From: Raillietiella orientalis
Taxonomy: Eukaryota
Length of the DNA stretch: 64,000 bases
Direction of reading: 5' to 3'
NCBI GenBank assembly: GCA_036172245.1
Contig: JAYWIR010000013.1
Span: forward strand, 3,844,001 to 3,908,000
Part shown: piece after piece, positions 9,204 to 64,000 of the stretch
How positions within the stretch are numbered: position 1 is the first letter of the stretch
Layout: every line of letters begins with the position of its first letter
Program-made: the position numbers and the translations under genes
The notes under the pieces: model-generated
The model's database searches: none
Seen by the model: the letters and a program-made list of their open reading frames with translations, nothing else
Told to the model about the DNA's origin: nothing

Positions 9204-10265
9204 ATGGGGAAATCTTCAAAAGATAAACGTGATATTTATTACCGGCTTGCCAAAGAGGAAGGTTGGAGAGCACGCAGTGCTTTCAAACTGTTACAAATTG
9301 ATGAAACTTTCCACATTTTCAAAGGTACTTGATGCTTTGGTTGGGTTGATTTTCTATGGTCACCAGGAGTAACATGTGCTGTTGATTTGTGTGCTGCACC
9401 AGGAAGTTGGAGTCAAGTATTGTCTCAGAAACTTGAGTAAGGACTGCAATGTTTCTGCATCCGTGTTATGTATTACAGGCATGCTAGTGATGATGTGTGC
9501 ATTGTGGCTGTTGATCTTCAGACAATGGCTCCTATTCCTGGTGTAATCCAGATCCAGGGTGACATCACAGAATCATCCACTGTTGCAGAAGTGCAGCAAA
9601 AGTTAAATGGTCGGCAAGTTGATTTGGTTGTGTGTGATGGAGCTCCTGATGTCACAGGAATGCATGACTTGGATGAATATATCCAAGGACAACTATTGCT
9701 TTCAGCACTCCACATTACAACCAAATTGCTCCGCTGTGGAGGTACTTTTGTTGCCAAAGTGTTCAGAGGACGAGATATTGGCCTGCTGTATTCACAGTTA
9801 TGTCTGTTCTTTGGCAAGGTGGAGATTGCCAAGCCACGGAGTTCACGTCATTCTAGTGTTGAATCCTTTGCTGTATGCAGGGAATTCACTCCTCCTCCTG
9901 GCTACACAGCAGACCATGCCCATGCTTTGCTTGAGTATTGCAGTGCAGTGGCTCGAGGAGGTACCTTTACTGGAGATACTCTGAAAGGCTTAATTCCATT
10001 TGTTGCTTGTGGAGATCTTAATGGGTGGGATGCTGACATGACATATCCCTTGCAACTGGATGACTGTCATGAGTATGTGCACTTGCCTCCGGTGCAGAGG
10101 CCTATTCATCCTCCATATGAGCATGCAGTGCGACTGAAAAGAACCAATCAGTTGGCACGGGTATGTGGACCATTTAACCATCCTCACCAGTTATTTGAGG
10201 AGACAGAAAGTGAAGACTTAACCAAATTACAAAATTTACGTTTGGATGACAATCAAAATCAATGA
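9204..10265 (+). CDS. TRM7: tRNA (cytidine32/guanosine34-2'-O)-methyltransferase, FtsJ/RrmJ family, Trm7/FTSJ1 orthologue; exons 9204-9324, 9367-9436, 9479-10265 (978 nt, 325 aa)
   Basis: Spliced translation starts [33 protein letters not shown], then [85 protein letters not shown] and [10 protein letters not shown], all typical of Trm7/FTSJ1. Removing two GT-AG introns removes two in-frame stops and restores one frame. The ORF track shows only exon 3. Confidence 0.97.
9325..9366 (+). other. Spliceosomal intron 1 of TRM7 (42 nt, phase 1)
   Basis: GTACTT...CACCAG; contains in-frame TGA; splicing joins [16 protein letters not shown]. Confidence 0.93.
9437..9478 (+). other. Spliceosomal intron 2 of TRM7 (42 nt, phase 2)
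   Basis: GTAAGG...TTACAG; in-frame TAA; splicing joins SQKL-E-HASDD. Confidence 0.92.
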
Positions 10266-19900: not shown

Positions 19901-22900
19901 GCACGGCAGCGTCTTCTGCGAAGCGTCCGCCCCCCAACGGCGGAGGCTCGGAGAATGGGTCGGGGAGCGATGCCCAGAAGTAGGGGAACGCCGCGAGACG
20001 GGAGTTCCCGAGACCTTGGAGCGTGTCGGTGCTGCTGCTGACCGTCGTCCGCGAGGGATCCGAGGCGCGGAGCCGTGGAGAGGTCGGTCGCTGCCACCGT
20101 TCGAGGAGGAGGGCGAAGAAAAACCGGACCTCGGTCAATAAAGTATGCCGGAAGAAACGTTCGGGCGATGCTTTGGATCGGAAAGAATTTCTGCCCGAAA
20201 GTACCAAGCGCGATCTTGACTGATGGTGGGGGCGGGAGGGGGCGAGGGAACAAAACAAACGGAAATGAGGGAGGGGAATGGCGCTGATTTAGGAGGCAGC
20301 GCGTTCCTAAACTCCGTCCTGCAGTGGTTTCTGCAGAGCATTCCAGAAGACGGGTTCACCCCGACGGGTCAGAGGAACGAATCCAAGCGGTCACGACACG
20401 AAGGCGCCAACAACCCCTGCGACGAGGTGTTTCTTTCTTTCTTTCTTTTTCTTTTTTTTCCCTCCTCCTCCTCCTTCTTCTTCTGCTTCTTCCCGTTCCG
20501 CCTGCTGTCGGCGCATGCGCGAACGCTTCGTTTATCTGCGCGTACGATAAATCCCGAGGCAGCTCGGAGGAGGAGGCGAATGGCGCGAAGATGCACACAG
20601 ATCTCGTTTTCCTGGGTCTTCGGGCAAACTTTGCACCCGAAAGTGAGTATGTTGTGCTTTTCCGCCGTTATCGTGCCCCAAGGCCACCGCCGCGGTGCGC
20701 TCTCGCCAAATTCCAGCAGACAATTCCGCTGCACATCCGGCATGGCGGCTTGGAATTTCGGTTTGCCTTTCTGGAGCTCCCGGGCGACAGCTCCATTCTT
20801 CAGGAAAGGGAATGTAAATTTCACGTCCACTCGCCCGTCCTCTCTCTTGGTTTAGTTGGCAGCGGCGGCAGCAGCAGCAGCACTGTTTTTTTTTTTTTTT
20901 TTTTTTTCTCTTTTTTTTTTTTTTTATCGTCACTCCGGGATCCGATAACGTAACGAGGCATCCAGGAAACGCTGTGCATTTTGTTTCCTGCAGATAAAGC
21001 CCTGCCTGAGCAGAATACACGGAATGCATCGAGAAAGCTGAAGACGTACGTCTCCGTCGTGTGCGCCCGACGTGCGCGTGGCGCTCTTTCCGTTGCAACG
21101 CCCACAGCTGTTTTCCCATTTGCACATCACCTCGGAGACGGATGGCGCGCCGAGGGAGGCACTCCGCGAGCGCAGGAGTCACCGCGGAAGGGGGACGACT
21201 CGCCATCGTGGGAAGTTTGGGAGGAGGCGTCCGAGCATGGCACGGCCCCTTATCGGCACGGATCGAGGCTGGGGCTTGTGCCCGTTCCACCCCCGGTTCA
21301 CCTCCGGGAATGACCCCTCGGGCTCGACCCGTCGGCGAGCGCACGAGCCCGCGGCTGCTTCCCGAAGAGCGGCAGAGAGGCGCTCCGTTCCGTTTCCGAT
21401 GCGGAAAGTACTGCCATCTATGCGCGTGGCCGTCAATTGCACGTGCTGCTGGCTATCCATATCAAACAGGTCGTGTTTTCGGCATGACTTGTTTAGGATT
21501 TGGAAGAACAACCGAAACAGAAACACGCCTCGGGCGCTCGCTCCTTTCCAAACTCGATTGCGTCACACTTTCCATGTCGCAGCCCACCACGATCTCTGCC
21601 TTGTCGCTTGCAACAACATGGTAGGTGCACTAAACGTGCCTAATCTTTTACGAAAACTTCAGAAGCCTTCTTTGGGAATTTCCGATCGAAAGTATTTCCA
21701 AATCCCACGGACGGAGATTGCCAACAGCAGCGGAGAAAGAAAGAAAATTCCTTTCCAACCCGTGGGGTATGTCGCTCTTAAGAAGTTTATCCTGGGATCC
21801 ATCGGATGGCGGGGAACCGCTGAGCAAAGAAAAGTGGTTGGAACTGCAACTTTGCGCCAGCGGAGCAGTGGTTATTCCTCGAGTGGTTTTCGGGGATGGG
21901 TTGGTGGTGGGAACACGCACGCGGTCTCGACACGTGGGGGACACTCAAACCGTGGGCCCGAACTGAGGTTTTGCTCCGAACCACAACTTTTCAGTTGCAC
22001 TTCTGCAACTCCCGAGAGCATGCCGCGGGACCAATTCCATGGGACTTACGTCCCGGGGATCGTGCCACGTCTCGGACAGGGACCCTTCTTCCGGGACCCA
22101 CGGGGTCCCTCTCTGATCGTAACGCGACGGATACGACGGATTCCAGCAGAATTGTGGTCTCGAGCGTCCTTGTCGCCGCTTTCCCGCTGGGGCTCTCTCT
22201 CAGCTGCTTCCTGGTGCCGGATGAATCCAGCGTACTTCATCTCTGGAGAGTCTGCCGCTTAGGATTCATCTTTCCGGGATTGCTCCTCGAACTGCAGCAC
22301 CGATTCCATGAATCCAAATGGATAGCGCAGTGGATAGCACTTTCTTCGCTCGCTAATTACTGATCCCTCCTCTCTAATGCTCGCGAGCATTCGCATGTTA
22401 GCAAATTGCCTGCGCATCCCCGAAAGTACTCCTGCAGCTCCATCCTTCTTGCTTCCATCTCCGGTCCCTGCCGTTCTGTTTACCCGAAATCCAAAGTGCT
22501 GCAACTGCCACGAGGATCTCGTATTCGACGATCGCGAAGGAACGCCATCTCCGTCCGTTTCTCAAAGAGAATCTCTTGCGGTTGAAAAATGGGCTCATGG
22601 GCAAATGAGATGGTTGGTTTCATCGCTTGTGCTGAAGCTCGAGCACCTACAAGAAGTTTCTTCTTTTCCTCCTCCAGCAAGTCGTGTGACCCGTCCGTGC
22701 CATCAGACATTTGGCTCCAGAAGGCGGTACAGCGCGTTTCAGCACTCTCTTGCATCCGATGGCACTTACGGACGCCTACTTGTAGTTCCGTGCTCCTCGT
22801 TGAACGGACATAGCGCGAGGGATGCACTGATCCTCTGTACCCGAGCACACGGGAAACTCATTTCTTGTCATCGCGGTCTCGTCTATCTCTGCCTGCTGTC

Positions 22901-24509
22901 TGCCGTGCCACCGGCTCCGGCGGGTGATACCGATCGCCCGAGTATTTCATCTCTTCGCGTGTCTTCCAATCGCATGGGGCGAGCCGACACTATCTCACAA
23001 AGTCTCACCACGAGATCGCCGATTCCATCGGGTGGGTGCGCAAGAAGTGTCTCTGCAGCGGTATGGTTAACGGACGAAGTCCTGTCTCGGGCCGCACGCA
23101 TTCCGAAGACGTCGAGGCATTCTTCCCTACAGCTGTGCTGCATCCGGTTCTCAGCGGCTCGAGCAGCGACTCACGCATGTGAATCTTTCACACTGCGCTG
23201 CCTGCAGCCTCGGCCGGCATCTGATAGACGCTGCGCGTTTCCTCGGATGCAAGAAAAAAAAAGGAAAAACGGCTCTCCTCGTTCGCCCTAGCATTCGCAG
23301 ACAGATCTGCAGACGCTGCTGTATATGCAGACGTTTTCCTCCTCTGAGGTCGGCAGGCGCTCTGCAGTCTCTCCCTCTGCATGTTTTTTTTCTTTCCTTT
23401 TAGCGTTGCTTAGAATCCTTCATCCGCTTTCAGCAACTCCCAGCTTTGATTTCAACACTTTATTGGGTGCTTTCACCGCTTCGGCTCGCGCACGGGCCAG
23501 AGGTCGGCGCGACGAACCGTTGATTTTTCTTGGCCCGATCGCTCCGGAGCAATCCCGTGCTCCACTGCCGATGCGAACAGACATCCTGAGGTTTCGAGCT
23601 GGCTCTAATCTTTCCGGGAACTCTCCGGGAATGCTGGAGTCACCCCGGTAACTGCGACTTCGACCTGCGGTTGAAATTCAACGGAGGCTCCGACCGTCGA
23701 GATGGATTTCCGAGCTTCTTCGCATCTGGCCTGTTCTCGTGCTTGCGGAAGCCTCGTGCTCCATTGATGGATGACCACCGACGCTTTTTCCCGAGTTTTC
23801 CGTAAGTTGAAGACGCCTTGCTCCAAGAGCTCTTGGATGGATGCAGGTGACTGCACCCAACACCGGATTCCGTTCTGTTGCTTCCAGCATCCCTCTGGAG
23901 CAGCCATCAAAGTTTTTGCTTACTGCCATGCTGTGACGGAAGTTTCTGCCATTTTCACCACGAATTTCCAAATCTTCCTGAAGGAACCAATCCATGAGAT
24001 TGTTCATTTCTATTTCATTGCCGTCACTACAGCAATGGCTTTTCTTTCGTTGCACCGTAGGTTTCGTTGTGCCTATGTGGTCTTCTTCTTGCAACTTCGT
24101 TGTCCTGTCCCTTTAGTCCATTTACCTTTGTTGTCCACGTCACCTATGCGCACCTATGATGTATGCACTTCCGATTTCAATATTGCCTGTGGACTTGACT
24201 CTTCACACGCTTACAAGTCATTGTGTCCTTCCACTAGCCAGTGCTTGTTGATGCTTAGAATCTTCGAAAGGTCATCCTCACTCACCTATCTATCGTGCGT
24301 AGAGTATCTAGCTAGCGCAGGGCAAAAACAATTCTTTGCGGTGGTTTATACCTGCGCCCCCGGACCTCGCTGTCATCGAAGGAACGCCGTGGTCCTCTGC
24401 ATTGCTGCAGTTCGATCGAACGTGTCTTTGTGGGTTTTTGGGGTGAGCGTTTCCTTGCGAGAGCGTAAAGACAGACAGGGCAACTGATGGTGGATGCTTT
24501 CCTAACAGC

Positions 24510-24786
24510 GGGGTCCCTCCGGGGAGAACAAGGAAGGAGCTTCCCTTCGGGAATCCCTGCCCGGGCATGAGAGGAACGGATTCCCTCCTCCGAAGTCCCT
24601 TCCTGGATTCAAAAGGTGGTCACCTCCCGGGGTGCCCCCAATCTTGAAGAGTTGACACGCACCCTCGGGTGGCGTGGAACAGCGTCAAAGAGCCGCCGCC
24701 AGGGGCGCGACGGTTTTCGAGGTACTCAGCGAACCCCCCCCAAAAAAAGGGGCGAAAGGGAAACAGAGAAGACAGAAAACTCGAAA
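24510..24786 (+). mobile_element. Third copy of the hairpin-array element (3' part only, 5' truncated)
   Basis: Colinear with 57768-58123: GTCCCTCC, GGAAGGAG, TCCCTTCGGG, TGAGAGGAACGGA, CTTCCTGGATTCA, ATCTTGAAGA, ACGCACCCTC, GGTGGCGTGGAAC, AAAGAGCC, GAGGTACT, GAAAGGGAAA tail. Confidence 0.85.
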
Positions 24787-26152
24787 TCCAAGCGCATCAC
24801 TGCAGATGCTCGAGAGGAGATTTCTGCGGAAGCTGTGCGACATGCGACGGCGTGCACTTCTGGTTGATGCATTCCAGAGTGCCCCCATTGTACGAATTAG
24901 CACGTGAGAGTGTCTCTTCGAATGGGTGCGTTCCTTCTTGCGTGTGCACGGGGAGGATCTTGGAGCTATGATCGGAGAATGAGTCCATCATCTCCTGAAG
25001 CCAAGTGTTGGAGCCAGTCGTTGAATGCTGTTGTGTGGGAACACAATGACGTCGAGCAAGTTGTGTACGTTTTTTTTCTTCAATTTGAATAACCGTATAC
25101 ATGCGTATGTTTTCCTGATGATGCTCGCAAGGTGTGGTCGGAGCGGAATCACCACCGTTTCGTGATGTTCCCGCAAAGGAGCACTCGTGATTCGCGCCAG
25201 GACTGTGCGAAGGGCCGAGTTGGGCGGATAGGAAGGGTGCTGCTTTGGGACACGTCCAGGAAGCTCCCAACCCCCCGCGCAAGACCTCGCACGAGGCTGG
25301 AGGAACAGGCGAAGACTACTATGGAGCTCAACATGGCGATTTCCGTTTCTTGGATGCTGCGCTGTTCTCATTAGGTTGCCGTCGCGCACTCACCTTTATC
25401 GTGACGTTCCTGGAATTCGCACGGCGGCTGGAGTCAGTTTCCATCGGAAAACGCGGATGTGTCTCCACGATAAGTGTTCTCTTTCGTTCACAGATCCTCC
25501 CTGAAGTGATTTGGAAGGCGAAGCGAACCCCAAAGGCCGAAATCTCGCGTGATCTCTCGCATTCATTACCTCCTGTGAAGATGGGGGTCCGAGGCGCCGC
25601 AAGCGCTCACTGCTCCTGCAGATGTTTTCCTGCGGCAGCCGATTCGCCGTTCCCCGCGTTTCGCTTTCTGCTGGAACGCGGTTTCCATCATTTCACGAGC
25701 TGCTCCTCTGGACCAGGTGTTTGGGCGAGCCTCGAAGGAAACACCTTTTCGAAACACCTCCCTCACCTCTGTGCTTCGAGAAGCGGATCCACGGCCCCCC
25801 GGAGGCTGCTTAGTCGGCACCGTGATTTCGTTCCTCCCGTCATTTTACACTTCTCCGGCAGCTGAGTTCATCCTTTTGGACTTTTCCATCCCCCATAGGG
25901 AATCCTTACGATGTTTAAGCAAGGGGAAAATTCCTCGACTACGCAAACGTTTTCCGTGCACTGTCATTTTCTTCTATGGGGTAAGGGTGGGGAGGAAACT
26001 CGTGGGCAGAGATCGATTTTCGAAGAGCACTGCCTACCCCCGCGTTGGTTCTCCTGTAGGAGGTCAACGGCGTCATCGCCGCCGAACGTGTTTCTCCCTG
26101 ACTTCGAGATTTCCAGGGCCTTTTCACGCATGGATGTGGAGTAGGACGCACC

Positions 26153-26584: not shown

Positions 26585-27922
26585 TGCCAGCTTCCTCTCA
26601 TCTTCGCGCTTGTTTCACGCCGAGCACTCGCATCCTGTCAGCCTGGAGCAGGGAACCCTCCTGCCGTCGCCAATCAAGATGTCATCTCTCTGTAACCCAT
26701 CAGCAGGCAGCTGCCCTAAGAGGCACGACTCCAGCCGAAGGTAAACTCCCCGCGAGTCGTCACTCCTGGCGGGTGATTAAGGCGCACTTGAGGTGGTGGC
26801 CGAACAGGCTTGCTCCCCGAATGGCGCACCTCGACAAGAAGCGCTCGTGCGTACTTGAAGACCTGAGCAAACATCGTTTCGTTCTTGCGGCTTCACCTCC
26901 TTCTCCCCGTTTGCCTCGAAGAATGAAAAAAAGTGAAAGGGAAGAAGAGCGCTCAGGTTGGCAAACAAATCTGCCGCCTGGGTCTCTCTCTCTCCCTCTC
27001 CCCTCTGCCCGGGAGAGGTGCGCGCGCAAGCGTGCCCCCGCACTTGAACGCATTCTTCGGGAAGGCTCGAACGAGGGTGAATCGAATGAAGATGGGCAAG
27101 CCGAGCACTTCTTGCGCAGCATTCTCGGTCGGTGCTCCTCCCGCTCTCCGGCGCACCCGCTATTGGGGGGAGGGGTCGGAGGGGGCAGCGAAGCACAAGC
27201 GTTCCTCCTGGAAGGCGCTTGCATCGGATCGGTCCAACAGGAAGCGGAAGTCCCAGGTGCGATCGAATTTGCGCACGGCGACGGGCGGGACGTTTGTTTG
27301 CAGCAAAAACGAACGCTCCTACGCCTGAAGGGATGAGTGCAGCCAGCGCAAGAGTCCCTAGTGCGGTGCAGGAAGAGCAAAGGAAGGAGTAGATCACCCG
27401 GTTTGGGGTGCCTCTTTCCCTGCGAATGATTGCCTGCAGCTCTTCGTGGACTCTTGTCTCAAGGCACTTACACTTACAGCTACTCCGAGCAGCCTCCTAG
27501 TCATCTGGAAGACGTCCTTACAGAATCTTTGCTGTTTCAGGGAGTAGCTGGCCACCACGGCTGCACGTACAATGTAGGCGATGGTGACAGAGTCCACCTT
27601 CGATAGGGCGTCTTGTCGGAAGAGCTCTTCGAGGAACCCAGTTTGGGAGGGGCAGGCTTCGTGCATTCCGCGAGGATGTGCGGAAGGGTTCCCTTTTCGC
27701 CGCATCTCTCGAATAGGGGGGTCATCTTCCTCCCTTGGTGAGACGGCATGGTCCGGTTGAGGCCAACAGGAGTTGGACCTTCAAGGGAAATCAGCGCTGA
27801 TGCTCGAAACGTGGACGGAACCGACACCGTGCTTTCGGGGAGATCCAGGTAGATCGCCCACTGTCTTGACCCTTTGGCTCCGGATGTTTTTCGCAGTGAC
27901 GCCGCCACCGGGCTGGACCCGA

Positions 27923-33559: not shown

Positions 33560-34360
33560 GGACTCTTGCACGGTTGCAGATCGTTGCGGTCCAGCGACTT
33601 TCAAAGCGATGAGATGCTGCGAGAACTGGAGGTCTTTCGGATTGCACGCAGACCGAGTGCGTGAGCTGATGGTCTCAAGACAACCGTACGGAACAGAAGC
33701 GATATTTATCGGGCTCTCAGGCTAGGTTGCCCTGCGGGTGAAGCGCTGGTCCTGTCCCCCGGAATTATGATGCTCGATAAACAAGATTTTCGGCAGCAAG
33801 TGGCACATGCAAGTGGACCATCTTGGAGCTCAGTGGAGTCTTTCGCAAAGAGTGCAAAAATCGCAGAGTCTCCCCCTTAATGTATGTTTGTACCTTCTTT
33901 ACCATTTCACCTTGTACAAGGAGCACAAAGACGTGTGTGAAGGGAGGAACTTGTACGATTCGTTCTGGTTAGGAAGTCGAAATGAATGCTCCATCTTCGG
34001 TACGAGGTGCGAAGTCGTATTCATCATCGACCTTTGTGTACAAGGACGTGAGCTTGGATGGAGGCTATGGTCAGTTCCGGGATTATAATGGCTATGGAGG
34101 GATAAAATTGATAAGAGTAGCTGAGGATATGATAAGGACGTGGTCGGCGGTGATCTTGGCTGTGAGTCGTGGGGAAAATGATGTTGGTTGAATTATGAGT
34201 CTTGTAGTTTGTAGGAGCGGGATGAAGAGAGATAGGGATATTTGGGCTCCTTCTGTAGTGTGATGGGTAAGCAAATGTCGGGGGGTTAAGGAAGATGAAA
34301 CAAAGTTGTCAGTTTGATAAGGCAATGAACCAGCAAGGAGATACGGGCGCTGCGTGGATA
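33560..34360 (-). mobile_element. Possible heavily degraded Penelope-like retroelement remnant
   Basis: Colinear motif-like peptides across frameshifts: IHAAPVS..FIA, HVL..S..LIN, SLYTKVD, NESYKFLP, YIKGETLRF, ENLVY; these resemble PLE RT (IHK.P..RPI, SLYTNID), thumb (YLP..S.HP..FIKGE..R) and GIY-YIG (NVVY) motifs; no ADD core seen. Confidence 0.4.
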
Positions 34361-35875
34361 TTATTATTCTTATTATTTTTTATGGTGGTCTTCAGGTTTC
34401 AGGCTTATCCCTCCAGAGAAACTCGCATTTTTTAAAAGCTGTTGATTTCGCGAGTTCCCTGATTTTGAAGGCTCCTGTCTTGGTTCCCCCGTTGGAAGCT
34501 TCAGTGCCTCATCGCAGCATCGGCAGGTGATCACCGAGTCGAGACCGACTCGAAAAGACATGCACGCACCTTATAAGGAATCTGACTGGATGAACGGAAA
34601 GAGGTACATCTCATGTAGAGCGTCGCACGCTCAAGAAGAGGGAGAATGGAGGAGTTGAATGGATGAAAGCGAAGCAGAAGAGCCACGGCAAAGCGAGCAG
34701 CTTTAGAAACGGTCTCCGTCGGATCGAAAGCGTCCTCAGCAAAAGAGACGCTCAGGAATGGCATCAGAAGAACACTGAGGACGGAAGGGTCGGTCAGCAG
34801 GAGAAAGAAGGATTCTGCCCGCGAAGATGCGAGGGTATCATCTGAAGGGAACGAATCCACTGGGTGCTCAGACTGCAACGCATCAATGCAGGTTGGTGAG
34901 AGAGGACGAAATCTCGATCTTGAATAGCATCCTGGATCCACTAAGGGATGACAGTCTTCTCATGAGACAGGAAGCGAGGAGGAACCAAATTTGCTGATGG
35001 AACACCTCCGTGATGGAAAGGCAGTCGAGGAAAGTTTCCCACCTCAACCAATGAGTTCTTGCAAAGAACGACGGAGTGCATCCGCCTTCCGAGAAACGAC
35101 GCGATCATCCCCGAACTCGCAGGAGTTCTTTCGGCGCCTCCTCCTCGGCGGAACGACTGCCTGCAGCGAGGACGCCATGCCGAGCGCTCCCCGCTCCAAA
35201 TCCGGAGTGCCATCAAACGCAATTGGAAACCGCGCCAGAAGCAACCCAATCCCCAGCCACTGCTTTCAGGAACCTTTGCCGAACCCCGCATGCGCTCAGA
35301 ATAGTCCCTGAGGTTGCGGCGATCACTCCCTCATCATCGGAACCGGAGCTTCGGATCAAAAAAAAAAAAAACCGGGAATCTCATCGTCTGCGGAATGCCG
35401 TCGAATGCCACACTCCCGGGAACGAAGGAAGACGGTTCTCCGCCCTGCACCGAAGACAGCCATTCCGCAAGAGCCGAAAGTTGCTATCCGGCTATCGTTG
35501 CGGCACTGCGCGGGAGCCGATCTTCTGCTCCTCCTGCAAGATGCAGTATTGATTTCGGCGAGATGGGAGATTTCGTCGGGAAATGAAATGGCACGCTTGA
35601 TCAAAGTGCAGATGAAATCCAGTATCTGAGCGTTTGTTTACTGGACCTGCTTTCGTCGAGATCAATCATCAAGCCGCGACTCGAAAAGGGATGCACCAGC
35701 TGCACGGTAGATGCTTGTAGGAATGGAAGCCGTTAGCGTGGGCCGAGAGAGAGCATGTTTCCTCCTGGAACGGCATCTAGATCTTCAGGAAGAGGAAGCA
35801 AAGTGGAGATTTTTCGGAAAGCACTTTGCTCCGTTGTGCCTAACGATTCCGAAGAAAGGGCTTAGGGTTTCGATG

Positions 35876-36411
35876 CTGCCCACGCTAAAGGCTGTGTGGG
35901 GCTGCGGCCTCCGCGAGCGGTACCCAACTGGTTGCTGGTTCGAATCCAACCGGGGAAGGATCGACGGCGAGAAGTCGGTGGTGCATTGTGGGTTTCGAGA
36001 AGACCCCTCTCCTGCAGGATGACGCCGGTTGCCCTACTGGCTTCGGGTCCGGCACTGGTGGATGCAGCCGGAAGTCGTATGACTGTGCCCACTGACTGTC
36101 CGAAATCGGAAGCTGACCCTCCGGGCTCCATCCAGGAATCAAGGAGCACCGGTTCTTTTCGACAATCCCCTCTGGGTGTGAAAATGGAGCCGTACTATGG
36201 TGCTGGTTGACTCCTTCCTCGAGGGCTGTCTCTCCGGAGCTCCATTCGGGGAGCTCCCCTTCAGAGAACTTGGGAGGCGTGTCTTCGGGATTTCTTTTGA
36301 AGACAACCAGGGTGAGAATTTTCCTTCGGGTTCCCCTACGAGGCGTAAGAGGAAAGCGCTCCTTCCTCCGGAGCCCTTTCTGCATCCCACAGGGTGGTTC
36401 ACTCCGCAGGG
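35876..36411 (+). mobile_element. Second copy of the hairpin-array element (head plus part of array, internally deleted, 3' truncated)
   Basis: CTGCCC...AGGCTGTGTGG 35889-35899, perfect B box GGTTCGAATCC 35937-35947; colinear blocks TCTCCTGCA, GGTGGAT..AGCCGG, CCAGGAAT(C/A)AAGGAG, AGACAACCAGG, CGT(A/G)AGAGGAA and CACAGGG shared with the 57151 copy. Confidence 0.75.
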
Positions 36412-39400
36412 GAAGTAGAAATGGGAATGTGGAATCTTCGCATCAGGGCAGCTAAGATGCCTGCGTACGGAAATTTTTTCGATCTTCATCTCGGGAAGCA
36501 GCAAGAATCGATCTTCTAGAGCGAAACCGCCAATGAGCTGGTTTTCCTTGAGTCCCTCCCGCTCTTGAGCTCACCGCACGATTGTGGCCGCGGATACTTG
36601 CCCTTACAGTTCACCGCCAAGAGATCTCGTCGTGACGTTGCAAGTTGAGATGAGTGCAGCCTTCAAGTAGCTTAATTTTTTGGCAACAAAGAAGCAACCG
36701 CTCGGGACTTCCCGGAGGACCGCCCGGGATGTTTGCAGAAGCCGTGCCCTGGGCTTTCCACGGTCGCTGCCGGCCGCGAGACCGAGTGCGAGGAGATCTG
36801 TCGAACTCGGGTTTGTGCGCAGGTGAGCTCCTGCCCGGGACCCGCGAACTGGGAAGATGCGGGGAATCGAGCAAACGGTCAGTCCGGGATCTCAGCTGGA
36901 GGGGGAAGATTCCTCCTCCGCACCGTCGAGACGGTAAGAAGAAGCCTCAAGGTTTTCCCAATTCCTCACAGTCGAAAGAGCAAAGGGCGATCGAAGAACT
37001 TGCCCATTTGCATTCTTTTTCCCTCCCTCTGACTCCAGTTGCATTCTTCTAGGTGGGTGGTGGAAGCGGCCGCCACGTGCGCTCCAAGTTTTGGGGGGGA
37101 GCCCAAAAGTGAAACCGTCATGACCACGATGCAGGGAGACTTCGCGTTTTTTTTTTTTCCCGTGGGAGGGGGTCAGAGGATGAAAACGGACTCCCCTCGC
37201 ACGACTCGGAGGATCGCCCGAGTCCTGTGTGAGCGGGGAAGATCACTCCACTCGCATCCATTCTTGATGCTGCTGACTGTTTGCATTCAGCACGGAAAGG
37301 ACGAGGTCGATCTGAGGTCTCATAAGATGGCGTGATGCGCCGCACTGCAAACAGAGCCTCCTTGAGGGAGCAGAGTCCGCGAATTCCAGTTTGCTGACGT
37401 TATAAACAGCGTGCGTTTGGTGCACGTTTGTAGCAAATGCTGCCGACGGAGCGGACGCAAGAAGAAAGATGAGGGCTCGCAAAGCGCGAGGCTGATCGAA
37501 CGTGGCTGCATCGGAATCAAAGCCTCGACTTCTGGCAGCTCTGTTTTCAGAAGCCTCGCTATGGGATTCACGGAATCTTCCCAAGTGGACGAATCAGACC
37601 CCTGGAGTTGTTGAGGATGTAGTGACTGCTCGAAGAAGCCAGGAGTTTTGGGGGAAAAATGAGGGTTCCCTTTGGAAGAAGGATTTTTTGTGTGTCCAGA
37701 TGACACACTCATTTCGATTCGACACTCATCTTGCGAACCCAGAACGGGTGCTCTCTGTGTTCCTGTCCGTTTTCCGGTTAAGGATAAAAGAATTCAATGG
37801 GGATTTCGGATAAATACTGTGTTGGAAAAAGAAGAGTGAAATGCTCAATACTTCCGTGCTTAATACACTCGAACATTCGTGTAGTAGCAGCAGTAGTCGG
37901 TATTCTCCTGTACATTCAGCTCATCGACGAGCGCCCCGTATTTTGCCTCGTCGAGTATTTCCGTGATAGCTGACGGATCAGATGCATCGATTACTTGATT
38001 TGATTGAAATTCCGAGGTCCGGACAAGATGCGAAAGAGACGAAGGATGTGAGCAGGGTTTCCTCCCGGTTGTCGTGGGGACCACAGAAAAGCAGATCCCT
38101 TTGCTTGCCTTGAAAGTAAAGATAATCTGGCATGCATACGAACGAAAGGATTCCCCGTTGCTAATCGGTCCCACCGCGAGTCCTCTTCTTCTGCCCACTG
38201 TTTTACGCAACTTCCATTTCAGAATGGCAGAATCAGTTCACGAAACGTTTCAATGCAGTTCAGTCGGTCCACCAATCAACGACATTCCTAACAATCTTCA
38301 GAAATCCTGCCGCATCACGGGAGGTCTTGCAGCTTGCGATCACACCATGGCAACCACCACACGGCTGCAGCAGCCTTTCCGGCACTGCACATCACACGAC
38401 CCATAACCACCTATTAGTTACGAATCAACACACGGGAGTCTTCCTCCGTTCTGCCATCATTATGCGCCTGCGTTCACACACGCGACCATCTTCTCGAAAT
38501 GGACTGCCGCCCTTCTTTCGCCATTAAACTTAAGAGCGGGCACCCTCCTCTGGGAGCTTTCCAAACATTCCGTGTCGACTAACCACGTGCGATCACCGTC
38601 CCTCCAGAGGAGCACTAGAGCCTGCATAATTGTCACACCTCTTCCCTGCAAGTAAGCGGTGGGTGCAACGTCCGGCTGTCCCTATCAAGAATCCACCGGC
38701 CGTGGCGCGTTCCCTTGCGGTCGAACGTATCTGACGGAGTATCTGCTGCGGATTCTCGAGAGGCTGCGGCGCACCCCGAGGGTTCCGTCGAACCCGCAGG
38801 GGATACCGCATCGGACACGACAAGGACTTACCAAGTCCCCATTACGATGCTGTGCCACGATTCCGTTCCAGCCACGTGTGCGTCAGCCGTTCGAGGATGC
38901 CTACTCTTTTCCTACCCATCCTCTCACGGTCATGCAAATCATCCACCCTCCCGCATTCCGGAACACTTCACGTCCGTTGCCAAGAGGACGGAGGTTGGAC
39001 CGTCGTCGGCGGGTTGAAGCAGTCCTCCCTGTTCCTGGAGACGCGCGGCGGTACAGATATCTGTATCAGCCCTGTTTCCCGTTCTCGGTGCGGTCGCATG
39101 GCAGGAGCATTTTTCTCCGATTGGCCACGGAGATTGTTTCCACGGAGGAAATGCGAGACGAGCGAGGATGGTCGCCCACAGCAATTTGATTTCGTTTCCT
39201 TCGGCGCTTAATCGATTCATCTTAGCTATCCTCGTGATCGGTTCGAGCCGTAATCAATTCTCAGCTCATATACATGCAGCGACCATCCTTCCCGTGCATC
39301 GGCACGTGATCGCTCCACAGAGAGCATCGCTGGGTATCCAGTGTTGCTGTTTCGCTTTGGCTGGCAGCAGTTGCGAAAGACTATTTGCATAATTAAAAAA

Positions 39401-56081: not shown

Positions 56082-57150
56082 ATCAGTGCCACGAGAGCAG
56101 ATGTGCGACGTACAATTGAACCGCTGCTAATGCTTGCGAAGGTCGGACCCAGCAAAATGGAGCATCATCAGGGCCTTCCTCCTTTCTCCTCTGAAGTTTT
56201 TCTCCGCCTTATAAGTAGGATGAACCTTAGCTATGCAGAAGAATTTTTTTCCGTTCCGTTTCAGGGGTCGTTGATTACCTATTCCTCATCGATCTCCTGA
56301 TTCTTCTTCTTCCCCTAACTTTTGTTCATGTCAAATTCAAGCCGCTTCCTGGAAGCAAACTAGTCCCTATCGTCCTCGATGGTGTTTTCAGTTCTGTCAC
56401 GTGACCCTCATTCTTCAACTTGCATTTCATCTTCCCACTGTCTCCGAACACATACGAAAAAATACAAAGTTCGGAGCGGCTGCGGAGAAGCTATGATCCC
56501 ACGGCTCAGTGGAGGAAAAAGCTCAACGGAATGCCAAAGTGGGCTCAGGAGATAATCTCACCAGGGTTTCTCTTCATCCTTCCGTTTTGTGAGCGCCGTC
56601 CGCGGCTAGAGCTCCAGACAAGCAATCTGTGAAGGATTACCAATGCTTGCATTATGGGGTCAATCCCTGGTACGTGCGGAGCGCTGTTAGAACGCACGGC
56701 GGTAAAGTTCATGGAAGACTCTTTCAGCTCAGATAAGTTTAGTCAGTGGATGAGGAAAATCGGGTGCAGGCACAGCAGCCCGCTGCAACGTCTTCTCGCC
56801 GCAGGGTTTTTGTTCCTTGCTGCTCACTGCTTGCATCCTGCTATCCTGTACCTAGGAGGCGGTGCAAATAGGAAAATTGATAAGTGTAATTATTACTGAC
56901 CACTCAGCTCAGGAGGCTACTTTTCCTCGAACATAAACCAGAAGACTACCATTGTATGGGATATTCAAATACTTCAGCTCTGACACTGGGCAACCAACTC
57001 GAGAACGTGTTAAGCTCTCACGAAGAGAAATCCGGTGCAAGAGGTTGGTTACGATTATGCCACTATTTTCTGACCCAGGCTTTTTCTGTAGCTGTTCAAG
57101 AAACGACGTTATGCTTGCCTGCCATCTCGAGTGAAATGTTCCTTCAAGAC

Positions 57151-57226
57151 CTGCCCGCGTCGGAGGCTGTGTGGTTAAGGCTTCCTCGCGTGGCCCCGTG
57201 CGTCGCGGGTTCGAATACTCCGGCAG
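57151..57226 (+). promoter_or_regulatory. tRNA-derived internal (type 2) Pol III promoter head
   Basis: GGCTGTGTGGTTAAGGC resembles the tRNA-Ser/Leu D-arm GGCCGAGTGGTTAAGGC; GCGGGTTCGAATAC resembles a T-arm; CTGCC...GGCAG can close it; no intact anticodon arm, so not a tRNA gene. Confidence 0.6.
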
Positions 57227-57351
57227 AAACCGACGCCACTGCGTCGTCGAGTTCCGAGTTTCTCCTGCAACGGCGCTGGTTGGCCGAGACATTCGGGCGT
57301 GGCTCCGGCGGTGGATTAAGCCGGGAGGTCCCCGATGAAGGCCGGAACAAT

Positions 57352-57965
57352 GGGAGTCGACCTTCGGGTCCTCCCAGGAATAAAGGAGTGGAGAGTTCCC
57401 CCTCCTGTCGTGCAGCGCAGAGCGGACCCCCCCACCAGGGGACCCCTTCGGTTTCAAGATGGAGCAGGAGCCCTCACGGGCACCTCTCCAGTTGTTCAAA
57501 GGAGCGGACCTCCCCATGTTGCGAGGGGGGACCCTCCGAGTCTTCAGCTCTTCACAGAGTGCAAGGAAGCAATCGAGAGAGATCCCCCTGCGGGAAGCTG
57601 CAGCGCCCCTTCTGAATTTCGGAAGCGTCTCTTTGGGGTTCTCTTCAGAGTAGTGAAAAGGAGCGGTTCCCTCGCGGGTTCCCTCCGGAGAAGGAATTCC
57701 TACAAGCGGATCCTTTCCGGGTTCCCTTCGGAGAAGTTGAAATGGAGAGGACCACCCCCCATTAGGGGGTGTCCCTCCAGAGAGAATGAGGAAGGAGATT
57801 CCCTTCGGGGTTCCCCTTCGTAGACAACCAGGATAGGAGGTGCGATCCCCCCTCCCCAAACGTGAGAGGAACGGACTCGAGCCTTCCTGGATTCACAGGG
57901 CGGACCCCTTCCGGGGTGCCCCCCCTATCTTGAAGAATAATACGCACCCTCCGCGGGGGTGGCGT
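57352..57965 (+). repeat. Array of ~14 imperfect palindromes (consensus GGAG-c-GG-n-CCC-loop-GGG-n-CC-CTCC) separated by mostly 8-18 nt unique linkers
   Basis: Examples: GGGAGtcGACC-TTCG-GGTCCTCCC 57352-57375; GGAGcAGGaGCCC-TCAC-GGGCaCCTCTCC 57461-57489; GGAGcGGttCCC-TCGC-GGGttCCCTCC 57660-57686; GGAGaGGACcACCCCC-CATTA-GGGGGTGTCCCTCC 57744-57778; GGGcGGACCCC-TTCC-GGGGTgCCCCC 57898-57923. Confidence 0.85.
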
Positions 57966-58175
57966 GGAACAACAGTGCTAAAGAGCCACATGATCCGCGA
58001 GGCAGCGACCGGCTCTTGAGGTACTTAGTGAACCACAAAAAAGAAAACCTGAAAAACCTGAAAAAAAAAAAAAAAAGAAATGCTGAAAGGGAAAAAACAG
58101 CGAAGACGGAAAAGAACTCAAAAGGATTTCCATCATTCCATTTCTTTTTTTCAGACGAGGTATGAGGCAAAATAC

Positions 58176-58223
58176 ACCACGTGGACTTTTTCCTTTTTTC
58201 AGGCGAGGGAAAGTCCACGTGGT
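58176..58223. repeat. Perfect 14-bp inverted repeat with 20-nt spacer
   Basis: ACCACGTGGACTTT 58176-58189 / AAAGTCCACGTGGT 58210-58223. Confidence 0.95.
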
Positions 58224-61200
58224 TTATGGAGCACTCAGGAGAAATTTCCAATTGAGGAAAGTGCGTACGGAGGTGGTGGTGGGTGACCTCACTCATGCAG
58301 CTCGGAACGTCCGGCGACGAAGGCAGACTACCAGTGCGAAAGGTCTTCAGCAATTTAATGAACCCATGACGTCATTCGCGTTAATTTATTACGAGCAAAT
58401 TAAGCAACCTCGGAAATGCAGCACGGATTCCGTGTGGCAAGCCGTACCAGCAAAACTCATGCATCATCCCTAATCATTGGCATTACCTCTTACTTTCACG
58501 GGCTGCTCTCATTCCCGATCCCGCTCGCCACCTTCGCGGTCCGGTCTGTTCGGTCGCCACCTTGGAACTTGGCACCGCATGAATAATGACGAGCAGCTTC
58601 CTATACCTTCTAATAATCTCCCAGCGGCCTTTTCCCTATTGCTCGCACACGTTGGAACCGTTGCGAAACAGCCGGTGCTCTTGAGTCTCCCGATTTTTGT
58701 TCGGGAAATCCCTGGATGGCAGCCACCTATCGGAGCCTTTCCGCCAAAAGGCATGGGCTTATCACGAAAGCTCGCGCAGCCCTTCCGCGAAAGGCCTCCT
58801 TCTTCATCTCTCCTTTCAGAACGGACCTCCAGCCGGCGTTCGGAGGTGTCTTCCTTTTGTCCACCGGTCTTGCCGCTGTTCTTTTACCGCAGTGCGCGAA
58901 CGGATGCTCTGTCGCAGATGCGCCGGATGAACTCGCGAGGCGTCGCTCCAGACTCCACAAATCACCCCAACCCCCGTTTCTTCTGACATTTGGCGGCAAA
59001 ACAGAAAACCGAGGTTTCCCTCGGAGAGGATCTCCTCCTGAAAAGATGCGGGAGGAGAAGGTCTCCTCCCCGCATCTTGTGAGAGGACCAGCACCGTCGT
59101 CGCTCGCATGTTTTCCCGGCTGAAGGCAGTTTTGGCGGGCTCAGCAGGGAAGCTCCCCTGCCGACCGCTTGAGTGGACCTGTCTGAGGTCGCAGCTGCCT
59201 CGTCAGCACGTACAGATAGACTATACAAACGTTCATGTGTTCCAGGAACTCGTCACCAGCGAACCGTTCTCATCCTGGACGAAATCCTCAGGCCAATCTC
59301 CGTGTTAAGGTGGTGGAAGAAGGTCTGTCGTCTCCCTGAGACGCCACCCAAAGCGGCTTTTGCGGTTTTCCCAGAGAAGAATTCGTTTGCTTCGTGCGGT
59401 CTGTTTTCTTTGATCGTCTGGTCAGCTACAAACTCTTCTCGGGAACATCCCACCTCGTTCTCGACGAGTTTTCTAGAAAGCTCGCGGCTGGGCACTGCAC
59501 ACTCAAAGGAAGCGCATCGAGCCTCGTCTCATCGCATGATTGGTCCACTGGAGTACTGTTGAAAAAGATCGTAAGAATCGTGGCAGCTGCCAACGTTGGT
59601 ATCTTTATTCTTCGAAAGAAAACGGAAAGAGCGCCCGTTTTATTTTCGTCAGTTCCACCCTCCTCGTCCTGCAACTCTTTCACAGTCGGGTTGCGGAAGC
59701 GACGTCTGCTCTATACCTTGAAGGGGGAAAGAAAATCCACCGACGTCAGGTCCCGCTGTTTACAGGCTGTCACATCTTCATCAGATAAAGGAGTGCGCAT
59801 GCCATCGCGAGACTTAGATGGCTCGTTAGGGAGTCCCGCTGAAAAAGGGACGCTTCGCCCGTCCCTTCAGGGAATTCGCATTCTCTGCATTCTGAGTCAG
59901 AATGACGACATCTGTGGCAGCAGCACCCACGCTGCGGACCCAGGATCCCGCTCAGATCGCACCAGATCGGAAATGATGCGCCGTGGTCGAGAATATGCTC
60001 TGCCGGCTCGGAAGCTGCAGATGACCGAACGTTCCTTCAGACGTTTGGGTGGAGGATGAAACGTCTCCATTACCCCGCGTATCCTCTGCACCGCGTCCCT
60101 CGTGGACGTCCACGAGCAAGCAGACTGCACTAAGGAATTCTGACCGACGAGATGAACTGGACCCGAAAGAAAATGCATTTCTGGAGAAAGATGCGATCCC
60201 GAGAAAAATCCGCACTGGACATTCCGACGTGAGCTGCAAGGATTGGCTCGTCTTTTAAATGAGAAGTGCCATCTTTCTGTGATGGCGGATGGCATCCTCA
60301 TGAAAGTTGAATGGAAAATTCGAAAGGATCTTGAAATTCCAGTTGCTCCAGACGTTCCTGAAGCCAGCAGGAAGCGAAAACGACGGGTCCACCATTCCAC
60401 ATCAATGGAAAACCCAGGAATGCATCCTCGATCGATATTTGCTACACACCTATTGCTGTAAACAAAAGCGGAAGCGGATAGCTTGCTCTGGAGTTTCAAG
60501 ATTCGAAGGCTGAAGTCAGATCTGGTGATTGAGGGCGAGAAGAAGGTGACCGTGCTGGACGCCGTTCGTTCCCACGGGTATTTATCAACGGCGCTGCAAG
60601 ATGCGAGGCAGGAGAAGAGCAGCCGTGGCCTTGGATTTCGTCTTCAGTGGGGCGCAGCGCAGCGTAAGAGCAAGAGTCACGTGACCTGCATCCGAGAATT
60701 GACGAAGTGTTGGGAATCTGGAATCAAGACTTTTGAAGGGAGCACATCGGAAAACAGATGGAGCGCTCAAGCGTGCACTGTTCCCGAGGTGCACACGGAA
60801 AACACCACATCGATTGGCACTCGCAATCCGTAACCACAGATTACGCTGAAGAGAAGAGACAAAAGGAGAAGGTGGTGGCAACTTCTCCCTCCATTTTTCT
60901 TTTTTTCCATCATCGTGGCGATCTGAGCAGCAGCTCCTGCAACCGTTTTCTTGCACGAGTTTTCTGAAGCTTCAAGAAGTTTTCTGAAGCAGTCAAGGTC
61001 CCTGGGGTTCATGAACGAGAAACGTAAGGACTGATGGGGTTACTCCTTTGATGGTTCTCCCGGAAGGTGCGTACCCGAATCCTGTGAGAGCTTCCCACTC
61101 CTTCCGTCTTTTTGTTTCTGGAAACGACCCAGTCCGGATGTTCCCTTTCTGGGAATTCCGCTGACATCTCCAGCCTTCAAGAAGTCTGCTGGCTCCCCGT

Positions 61201-63303: not shown

Positions 63304-64000
63304 CTTTTCAGCTCGGCGGTGGAGTCCGGAGGTGACGGAGAAGAAGGCTGCCCCTCCAGGAATCCAAAAGGAGTGAAGGAGGAGGGCCGAGGAGTGACTT
63401 TCGGGCTCGGACGCTGTTGCCGCAATAGCCAGGGGTCGACGGTCGGTCCGAGCTCACTCCTGGGGATCCGGCTGGCACCGAGTATTCGCTGGAAAAGGGA
63501 TGTTTTTTTTTTCGTGTGTGTGTTTTCCCGGGGTGCGAACGCGCACGTTTGCGAGCCTGCGTGCCGGGGCGGGGTCAATTGGAACGCGAGTGCTGCGACC
63601 CGACCTTGCTGCTGCTGCCCATCACCGCTGCCGATGGCTCCCGTCATTTCGCCTGGTTTCGGACTTGCAAAGGTCCATTCGAAAAAAAAAAAAAAAAAAA
63701 AAAAACGAGAGAAAAAACGGATGCGGGAATCTGAGGGTTGCAAAATCCTTCAGGATTCGTTTGGCTTCTCCTGTGGCTTTTCAGGTCAGGATGTGGGTCG
63801 ATCCTCTCTCTCCCCACATGGAGGGAGAAAGCGAAGGGAATGGGGGAATTCGTCCCCGTTTCATTCCTGTGTCCTTGCTGCGGAATGACAATTTTAATCT
63901 CGTCCGAATGAGGGACACCCCTCCGCCCCCACTCCACCCTCTTCTTCCTCCACCGCAGCTGCTATTCGGATCGGCCACGGAGTCCGCTTCCAGATTACCT

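Follow-up and report, generated by a model that had tools for sequence, protein, structure and literature searches.

tRNA-derived short interspersed elements (SINEs) are about 80-700 nt long, carry A and B boxes, contain no open reading frame (ORF), are flanked by target-site duplications, and end in poly(A), a simple repeat or a 3' end shared with a long interspersed element (LINE); eel UnaL2 and UnaSINE1 are an example of a LINE/SINE pair with a common 3' stem-loop. SVA is a primate-specific composite retroposon that has a GC-rich variable number of tandem repeats (VNTR) region and no head of the RNA polymerase III (Pol III) type, and the A-repeat of Xist consists of tandem GC-rich hairpins with U-rich linkers that form a multivalent protein platform. 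Reviews of tRNA-derived SINEs as a class are PMC3747384 and PMC4494074. According to passages of the respective papers, the reverse transcriptases of "stringent-type" LINEs recognise a stem-loop at the 3' end of LINE and SINE RNA (PMC5135761), the RNA of the SB1 SINE binds the double-stranded RNA (dsRNA)-binding protein HYL1 in Arabidopsis (PMC2408557), and a survey of 64 apicomplexan genomes judged tRNA-containing repeat models too long for SINEs (PMC9141347). Here we analysed a window of 64,000 nt (64 kb) of Raillietiella orientalis DNA (contig JAYWIR010000013.1; all positions below are those of the window) and describe a repeat at 57151-58131 on its + strand. It is close to certain that this element is a non-coding dispersed repeat with a decayed palindromic tandem array. 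It is the best-preserved and least decayed of three diverged copies, a fairly ordinary kind of repeat with an unusual body architecture, and we give about an even chance to the reading that the family is a non-autonomous retroposon, long and SINE-like, whose hairpin unit was amplified internally.

The 5' limit of the main copy was set at the onset of its similarity to copy 3 (CTGCCC) and the 3' limit where similarity to copy 2 fades; these limits are uncertain by several nt. The main copy, its parts and the two other copies are as follows.

57151-58131 (+): main copy, apparently full-length, about 980 nt, from nhmmer self and cross matches
57157-57236 (+): tRNA-like head of about 80 nt, with a 7-bp closing stem (57157-57163 / 57230-57236) and both box-like blocks
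57164-57174 (+): A-box-like block AGGCTGTGTGG, resembling the A-box consensus
57208-57218 (+): B-box-like block GGTTCGAATAC, resembling the B-box consensus
57237-57351 (+): head-proximal body, common to copy 3, including a CCGGC...GCCGG stem (alignment; blastn 57151-57388 against 35876-36146)
57352-57925 (+): array of 14 stem-loop units, U1-U14, with a start-to-start spacing of 31-64 nt
57942-57965 (+): hairpin U15, ACGCACCC.../...GGGTGGCGT, whose stem sequence is kept in copy 2, where the loop has a 5-nt deletion
57981-58017 (+): terminal long hairpin U16 with the 7-bp stem AAGAGCC/GGCTCTT, in which two G-C pairs have become G-T in copy 2
58018-58034 (+): conserved 3' block GAGGTACTTAGTGAACC, identical to copy 2 at 15/17 positions, both differences being transitions
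58035-58131 (+): internal A-rich segment, 2.4 copies of (AAAACCTGA) and an A run, followed by the conserved end ...GAAGACGGAAAAGAACTCAAAAGGATTTCC (copy 2 alignment)
58145-58151 (+): T7 run in the flank, a possible Pol III stop, the first run of at least four T after 1063 nt
24498-24789 (+): copy 2, 5'-truncated, from part of U10 to the 3' end ...AAATCC (blastn, alignments, nhmmer)
35875-36410 (+): copy 3, with the head, U1-U2 and U10-U14-like units (Smith-Waterman; nhmmer match to 36500)

This three-copy family would work most like a tRNA-headed SINE. It resembles tRNA-derived SINEs in being a non-coding dispersed family with box-like blocks 44 nt apart, then a unique body and a 3' region rich in A, and in including a copy truncated at its 5' end; it differs from them in its length of about 980 nt, in a head that fails tRNA finders, in having no detectable target-site duplications and no terminal poly(A), and in its hairpin-array body. 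Like SVA, it appears to be non-autonomous, and its middle is a GC-rich tandem array of units of about 35-50 nt whose number varies by copy; unlike it, it has a putative Pol III-type head and units that are bulged palindromes, which the VNTR units of SVA are not. The likeness to stringent-type LINEs lies at the 3' end, where U16 and the conserved block are the best-conserved part between the main copy and copy 2, and by analogy might be bound in the same manner.

We searched the window with the main copy using nhmmer and obtained matches at 24498-24779 (E 5e-25) and 35877-36500 (E 1e-13). No further copies were found in the window by blastn, Smith-Waterman alignment or nhmmer, and the only other match below E 0.3 was that of the element to its own antisense strand (nhmmer E 7.8e-07). 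The original prediction, which was made from the letters of this DNA, had proposed collecting copies by BLASTN, and within the 64-kb window blastn found copy 2 at about 24500-24790 (+). In copy 2, a deletion of 37-46 nt leaves the 5' half of U11 fused with the 3' half of U12, as would be expected to happen between repeated units, and a TTTT has been created within U16; the copy keeps U16, the conserved block GAGGTACTYAGYGAACC and the A-rich segment. Copy 3 lacks U3-U9 and the 3' end. It starts together with the main copy at CTGCCC, and the sequences upstream of the two are unrelated. In the one flank compared, 57151-57770 scored no better against the 807 nt upstream of copy 2 than against control segments. 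The finding of three copies in 64 kb, one of them 5'-truncated and with the one tested flank unrelated, agrees with the dispersal of a SINE. The predicted spread by retroposition is borne out to the extent that two more copies lie in the same window and one is 5'-truncated, but target-site duplications were looked for and not found. The copies are about 60-80% identical to one another, indicating that they are old. All three copies lie on the + strand within 33 kb, an arrangement with a chance of 1 in 4 that could otherwise reflect an orientation bias, for example within one long transcription unit.

The body of the element is a repeated array. From 57352 onward, each unit has a purine-rich outer helix, usually one bulged base, a small internal loop and a G/C stem, and 16 stem-loops (U1-U16) were delimited in the element. 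On reading 56800-58500, the outer helices that had been described (GGAG/CTCC, GAAG/CTTC, GGAA/TTCC and GGG/CCC), the loops TTCG, TCAC, TCGC and TTCC, the quoted linker sequences, the AAGAGCC/GGCTCTT hairpin (57981-58017), the A-rich stretch and the T7 run were all present in the letters. The array has a period of about 40-46 nt, each unit comprising a GC-rich imperfect palindrome of about 28 nt and an A/T-rich linker, and the body spans about 575 nt. An internal repeat search detected the direct-repeat families D1, D2 and D5, spaced 40-43 nt apart at 65-84% identity; U8 and U9 are 84% identical over 32 nt. The linkers, which had been called unique, were instead found to belong to the direct-repeat families D4, D8, D9 and D11. 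Tandem Repeats Finder (TRF) reported only the repeats of the A-rich tail. The array is best described, on its sequence, as a strongly decayed tandem array of degenerate direct repeats.

RNAalifold applied to ten units gave a 3-bp outer helix, then a bulge, 2 bp, an internal loop and a further 3 bp. The covariance model derived from these ten had the consensus GaGcGGaCcCCC-UucC-GGGuucCCCuCC, and nine units fit it, all nine belonging to the training set. Scanning all 64 kb with this model, filters off, recovered the ten training units and two further units in copy 2; copy 3 gave one weak match (11.7 bits, E 5.5), one match was the isolated hairpin described below, and the remainder were at chance level or antisense to the same units. 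Paired columns were 71% identical between units, compared with 40% for bulge and internal-loop columns. These results indicate that the units are homologous repeats and not look-alikes in structure alone, because the stems are conserved in sequence more than the bulges and internal loops. The bulge lies on the 5' arm in 9/9 aligned units and is a C in 6/9. Elsewhere in the window, an isolated array-like hairpin was found at 27383-27420 (+) (model match 27387-27417, 19.3 bits, E 0.11), with no other element sequence around it.

The hairpin content was compared with dinucleotide shuffles. A descriptor of the unit (an outer helix with a purine 4-mer, then a bulge, 2 bp, a small internal loop and a stem of 3 bp or more) was scanned over 57320-58030, where it fitted 7 units on the + strand and 10 on the - strand (shuffle means 2.2 and 2.9, n=500); these counts were reached by 1/500 and 0/500 shuffles, respectively, and are optimistic since the descriptor, like the covariance model, was designed after the units had been seen. 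The maximum elsewhere in the window was 6 (+) and 5 (-) per 711 nt. The best non-overlapping simple hairpins of the same region summed to -210.6 kcal/mol on the + strand versus -183.5 +/- 11.2 kcal/mol when shuffled (z -2.4; reached by 0/40 shuffles) and to -217.6 kcal/mol on the - strand (z -3.0). Flanking control segments gave z values of about 0. The fold of the whole element reached z -1.1 on the + strand, with 5/20 shuffles equally good, and z -2.8 on the - strand. Taken singly, only 4/16 hairpins (U1, U4, U8 and U10, for which 0-7/200 shuffles fold as well) had z of -2 or lower, and U6 and U7 folded worse than their own shuffles. The motif GGAGCGGNNCC was not enriched across the window (27 found versus 22.6 expected). 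Taken collectively, the hairpin signal is clear, though few units stand out singly. The original prediction had spoken of about 14 structurally conserved hairpins, with folding no better than dinucleotide-shuffled controls as a possible refutation. The array does exceed such controls in summed hairpin energy and in descriptor counts, but the whole-element fold on the + strand does not, and most hairpins do not do so individually.

Whether pairing is maintained independently of sequence was assessed between units and between copies. Across the nine units aligned to the model, pairing is found in 91.7% of cells versus 86.0% with partners shuffled (1/500 shuffles reach this), and two-sided changes occur in 3/8 pairs, all in the outer helix (5 cells versus 1.5 expected, reached by 1/500 shuffles), in an alignment that was itself fitted to the structure on which covariation was measured. 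Between the main copy and copy 2, 3 changes at paired positions keep pairing and 4 break it, pairs lost to indels being excluded. An A-T pair of U13 in copy 2 corresponds to a G-C pair in copy 3, and the U10 stems of the main copy and copy 3 differ in sequence, yet both fold. G-U cells (9) outnumber A-C cells (4) in the model alignment, which weakly favours an RNA of the + strand. Pairing thus appears to be kept with a little compensation, mostly since the stem sequence itself is conserved. The earlier statement that pairing is conserved while sequence drifts is only weakly true: compensation is seen in those 3/8 pairs, but the stems are the part most conserved in sequence. The selection at the RNA level proposed from it is likewise backed by this modest covariation, but the case is thin overall, with G-U pairs equal on the two strands and no hairpin excess in copies 2 and 3. 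Evidence for an RNA-level function of the hairpin array is weak. Two linkers 440 nt apart (57453-57473 and 57914-57934) are 71% complementary over 21 nt, including TTCAAGAT/ATCTTGAA, and TTCAA or TTGAA occurs in several linkers; long-range pairing between linkers is possible and may be due to chance.

The head carries the signals on which a Pol III-type reading depends. Measured from start to start, the distance between the two box-like blocks is 44 nt in the main copy and 48 nt in copy 3. An 11-nt A-box-like and a 9-nt B-box-like block are identical between the main copy and copy 3, while the rest of the head is about 60% identical, placing these blocks among the parts of the head that are best conserved. 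An exact GGTTCGANNCC occurs just once in the window, in copy 3 at 35937. At 90% of the ARAGORN thresholds, the head of copy 3 is drawn as a cloverleaf of 92 nt that has a long variable arm and the T arm GCTGG-TTCGAAT-CCAAC; for the main copy, only a poor cloverleaf appears, at 80% of the thresholds. A Pol III-type, tRNA-related head is plausible from these features.

A SINE-like life cycle can be sketched from these parts. The A- and B-box-like blocks of the head, at the spacing of tRNA genes, would direct Pol III across a TTTT-free body as far as the first T run in the flank. The array arose and was reshaped as units were duplicated and deleted, as the direct-repeat families, the copy 2 deletion and the unit number of copy 3 show. 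The RNA of each unit is predicted to fold into a bulged hairpin, so that the transcript would resemble beads on a string. The longer 3' hairpin, the conserved 17-nt block and the A-rich end may be recognised by the reverse transcriptase of a partner element, and the 5'-truncated copy 2 would represent incomplete reverse transcription. Old copies would then decay neutrally, which would explain why the hairpin excess is left only in the main copy.

A number of results weigh against this SINE-like reading. The head is not recognisable as a tRNA, target-site duplications were not found and the element is not short, its length of about 980 nt exceeding the typical range of SINEs. ARAGORN at default thresholds found 0 tRNA genes in the whole 64 kb, Rfam tRNA gave no match at E up to 10 in 56900-58400, in 35800-36500 or in the 111 nt of 35860-35970 alone, and RNAalifold found no cloverleaf in the heads of the main copy and copy 3. 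At gathering thresholds, Rfam had 0 matches of any kind in the whole window; the 13 Rfam matches at E up to 10 in 56900-58400 had 11-22 bits, compared with gathering thresholds of 37-80. The box motifs at one or two mismatches occur in the window at chance frequency (21 versus 21.1 expected; 256 versus 253). The description "tRNA-headed" therefore survives only as box-like motifs at tRNA-like spacing, but not as a tRNA detected by default ARAGORN, Rfam or RNAalifold. No exact repeat of at least 8 nt flanks the main copy, one 8-mer repeat near copy 2 lies within the element, and the scores of gapped flank alignments, 5.5 and 6.0, lie at the level of the null median (null mean 5.6); the copies may be too old to keep target-site duplications. 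The A-rich stretch is present, but it is internal and not the tail that had been described or a terminal poly(A), conserved sequence continuing after it to about 58131. TTTT is absent from 57082-58144 (1063 nt) around the main copy, the fourth-longest such gap in the window, which in itself counts in favour of the SINE-like reading; 139/6301 windows of equal length (2.2%) are likewise free of it, making it only mildly unusual, and copies 2 and 3 do hold TTTT. Copy 3 is 3'-truncated, which retroposition does not predict. The bodies of copies 2 and 3 have no hairpin excess (z about -0.6 each), the excess being confined to the main copy, and neither strand is favoured by G-U pairs (9 on each strand), the minus strand folding slightly better. 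No reverse transcriptase (RT), endonuclease or transposase domain was found in the 264 ORFs scanned out of 341 of at least 90 aa, including those adjoining all three copies, or in 13 stop-to-stop ORFs that rank among the longest (at least 239 aa), and this Pfam domain scan of ORFs showed no LINE in the window.

Several of these points would be met equally if the repeat were a fragment or derivative of another mobile element, either the 3' untranslated end of an autonomous non-LTR retrotransposon (one without long terminal repeats) or the relic of a DNA transposon or rolling-circle element, with coincidental box motifs. The missing target-site duplications, the failure of the head in tRNA tests, the chance frequency of the box motifs, the truncation of copies at either end and the length of about 1 kb all agree with such an origin. 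We consider it unlikely, though deserving of serious weight: the main copy and copy 3 share a 5' start with unrelated sequence upstream, the 264 scanned ORFs hold no RT, endonuclease or transposase domain, and few parts of the head are as well conserved as the box-like blocks. A rather improbable explanation is a family of host genes, transcribed by Pol III or Pol II, whose product is a long structured non-coding RNA. Its hairpins would serve as a multivalent platform or be cut to small RNAs, and copies 2 and 3 would be decayed pseudogenes. This would account for a hairpin excess in the main copy only, the 71% versus 40% conservation of stems and loops, some compensatory changes, and a TTTT-free body followed by T7. 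Against it stand the modest covariation in an alignment fitted to the structure, the lack of strand asymmetry, the absence of an Rfam family, and truncated, rearranged copies within 33 kb that resemble the decay of transposons; moreover, hairpins of 21-37 nt are below the typical length of microRNA (miRNA) precursors.

Alternatively, the palindromic units might have a role in the DNA alone, for example as protein-binding sites made of inverted repeats or as a minisatellite prone to slippage, and RNA hairpins would then be a by-product. In favour of this, both strands fold equally well (-210.6 versus -217.6 kcal/mol), 9 G-U pairs are found on each, there is a match between the element and its antisense strand, and the units are direct repeats of variable copy number. 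The constant position of the bulge on the 5' arm and the ratio of G-U to A-C cells (9 versus 4) point the other way, and the head, the 3' block and the dispersal would be left unexplained, so that we regard a purely DNA-level role as improbable. Chance folding of a GC-rich stretch with purine and pyrimidine runs has almost no credibility. The z of only -1.1 for the whole element, the 12/16 single hairpins no better than z -2 and the lack of enrichment of GGAGCGGNNCC would suit it, but two further homologous copies, descriptor counts reached in 1/500 and 0/500 shuffles and the internal direct-repeat families do not; the existence of homologous copies effectively refutes it.

Beyond the SINE-like reading, we also considered that a Pol III transcript of about 1 kb with nine or more near-identical bulged hairpins, amplified under selection, may be a multivalent platform for one RNA-binding protein. 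Such a platform is quite doubtful. Its candidate partners would be the reverse transcriptase or chaperone of the partner element, or a host protein that binds dsRNA or bulges. Like the Xist A-repeat, the element would string some 8-14 short GC hairpins along one RNA, separated by A/U-rich linkers; this is an analogy and not membership, there being no homology, and here the array sits in a dispersed, decaying repeat. SB1 may offer a precedent for SINE RNA stem-loops that titrate a host RNA-binding protein, although it is a short plant SINE without a hairpin array. If the platform existed, multiplication of the recognition hairpin would have given the mobile element a higher "valency" of its own or would let it sponge a host factor.

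The coding potential of the element was also examined. A protein-coding repeat had been named as a possible refutation of the original prediction, and this alternative was not borne out: the element holds three overlapping open frames, no repeated peptide, a unit spacing that is out of frame and no Pfam match, and the 327-aa minus-strand ORF across it had no homologue (179-573 aa) at E up to 0.001. Helitron-like ends were sought by eye, and the element ends CTGCCC... and ...GGATTTCC do not match the 5'-TC and 3'-CTRR of Helitrons, within limits that may be off by several nt. Metagenome scans by exact words only, in which diverged relatives would be missed, returned 0 matches and then 9 sharing only the 21-mer; prokaryote genome contigs, searched in the same way and with the same limit, returned 0 matches and then 1 unrelated bacterial match without a tRNA. 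A literature search, covering papers and not repeat databases, turned up no account of an element that combines a tRNA head with a body made of a hairpin array; this does not establish that such an element is undescribed.

If the SINE-like reading is true, the family would be unusually long, with a Pol III-type head and a body made of an amplified hairpin module. It would then offer a case for studying how structured RNA modules multiply and vanish in mobile elements, and whether hairpin valency aids retroposition. If the source lineage is one without reported SINEs, the family would fill an annotation gap. In practice, annotation should mask this locus as a repeat, and neither a gene nor a 327-aa ORF should be called there.

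Several other features were observed in the window. About 20 nt past the T7 run lies a near-perfect inverted repeat at 58172-58227 (+), with arms of about 18 nt (CCACGTGGACTTTTTCC ... GGGAAAGTCCACGTGG) that each contain a CACGTG palindrome; it has only sub-threshold miRNA-like Rfam matches (best E 0.35). With almost no Pfam domains in the roughly 270 ORFs scanned, the window appears largely non-coding. Long homopolymers occur as T28 (2463-2490), T40 of 89% purity (20886-20925) and A24 (63682-63705). A 95-aa ORF at 34095-34379 (-) matches ATP synthase subunit a below the threshold (PF00119, E 5.7e-05, 23.5 bits versus a cut-off of 33.9), and ATP-synt_A clusters rank first for it (0.89) in a protein atlas; these matches would fit either a diverged fragment of a nuclear gene or a mitochondrial DNA insert. 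At 9441-10265 (+), one open exon encodes most of an FTSJ1/TRM7-type tRNA 2'-O-methyltransferase (Pfam FtsJ, E 7.9e-35), with 61% identity to its best homologue and with animal and metagenome proteins as the top matches.

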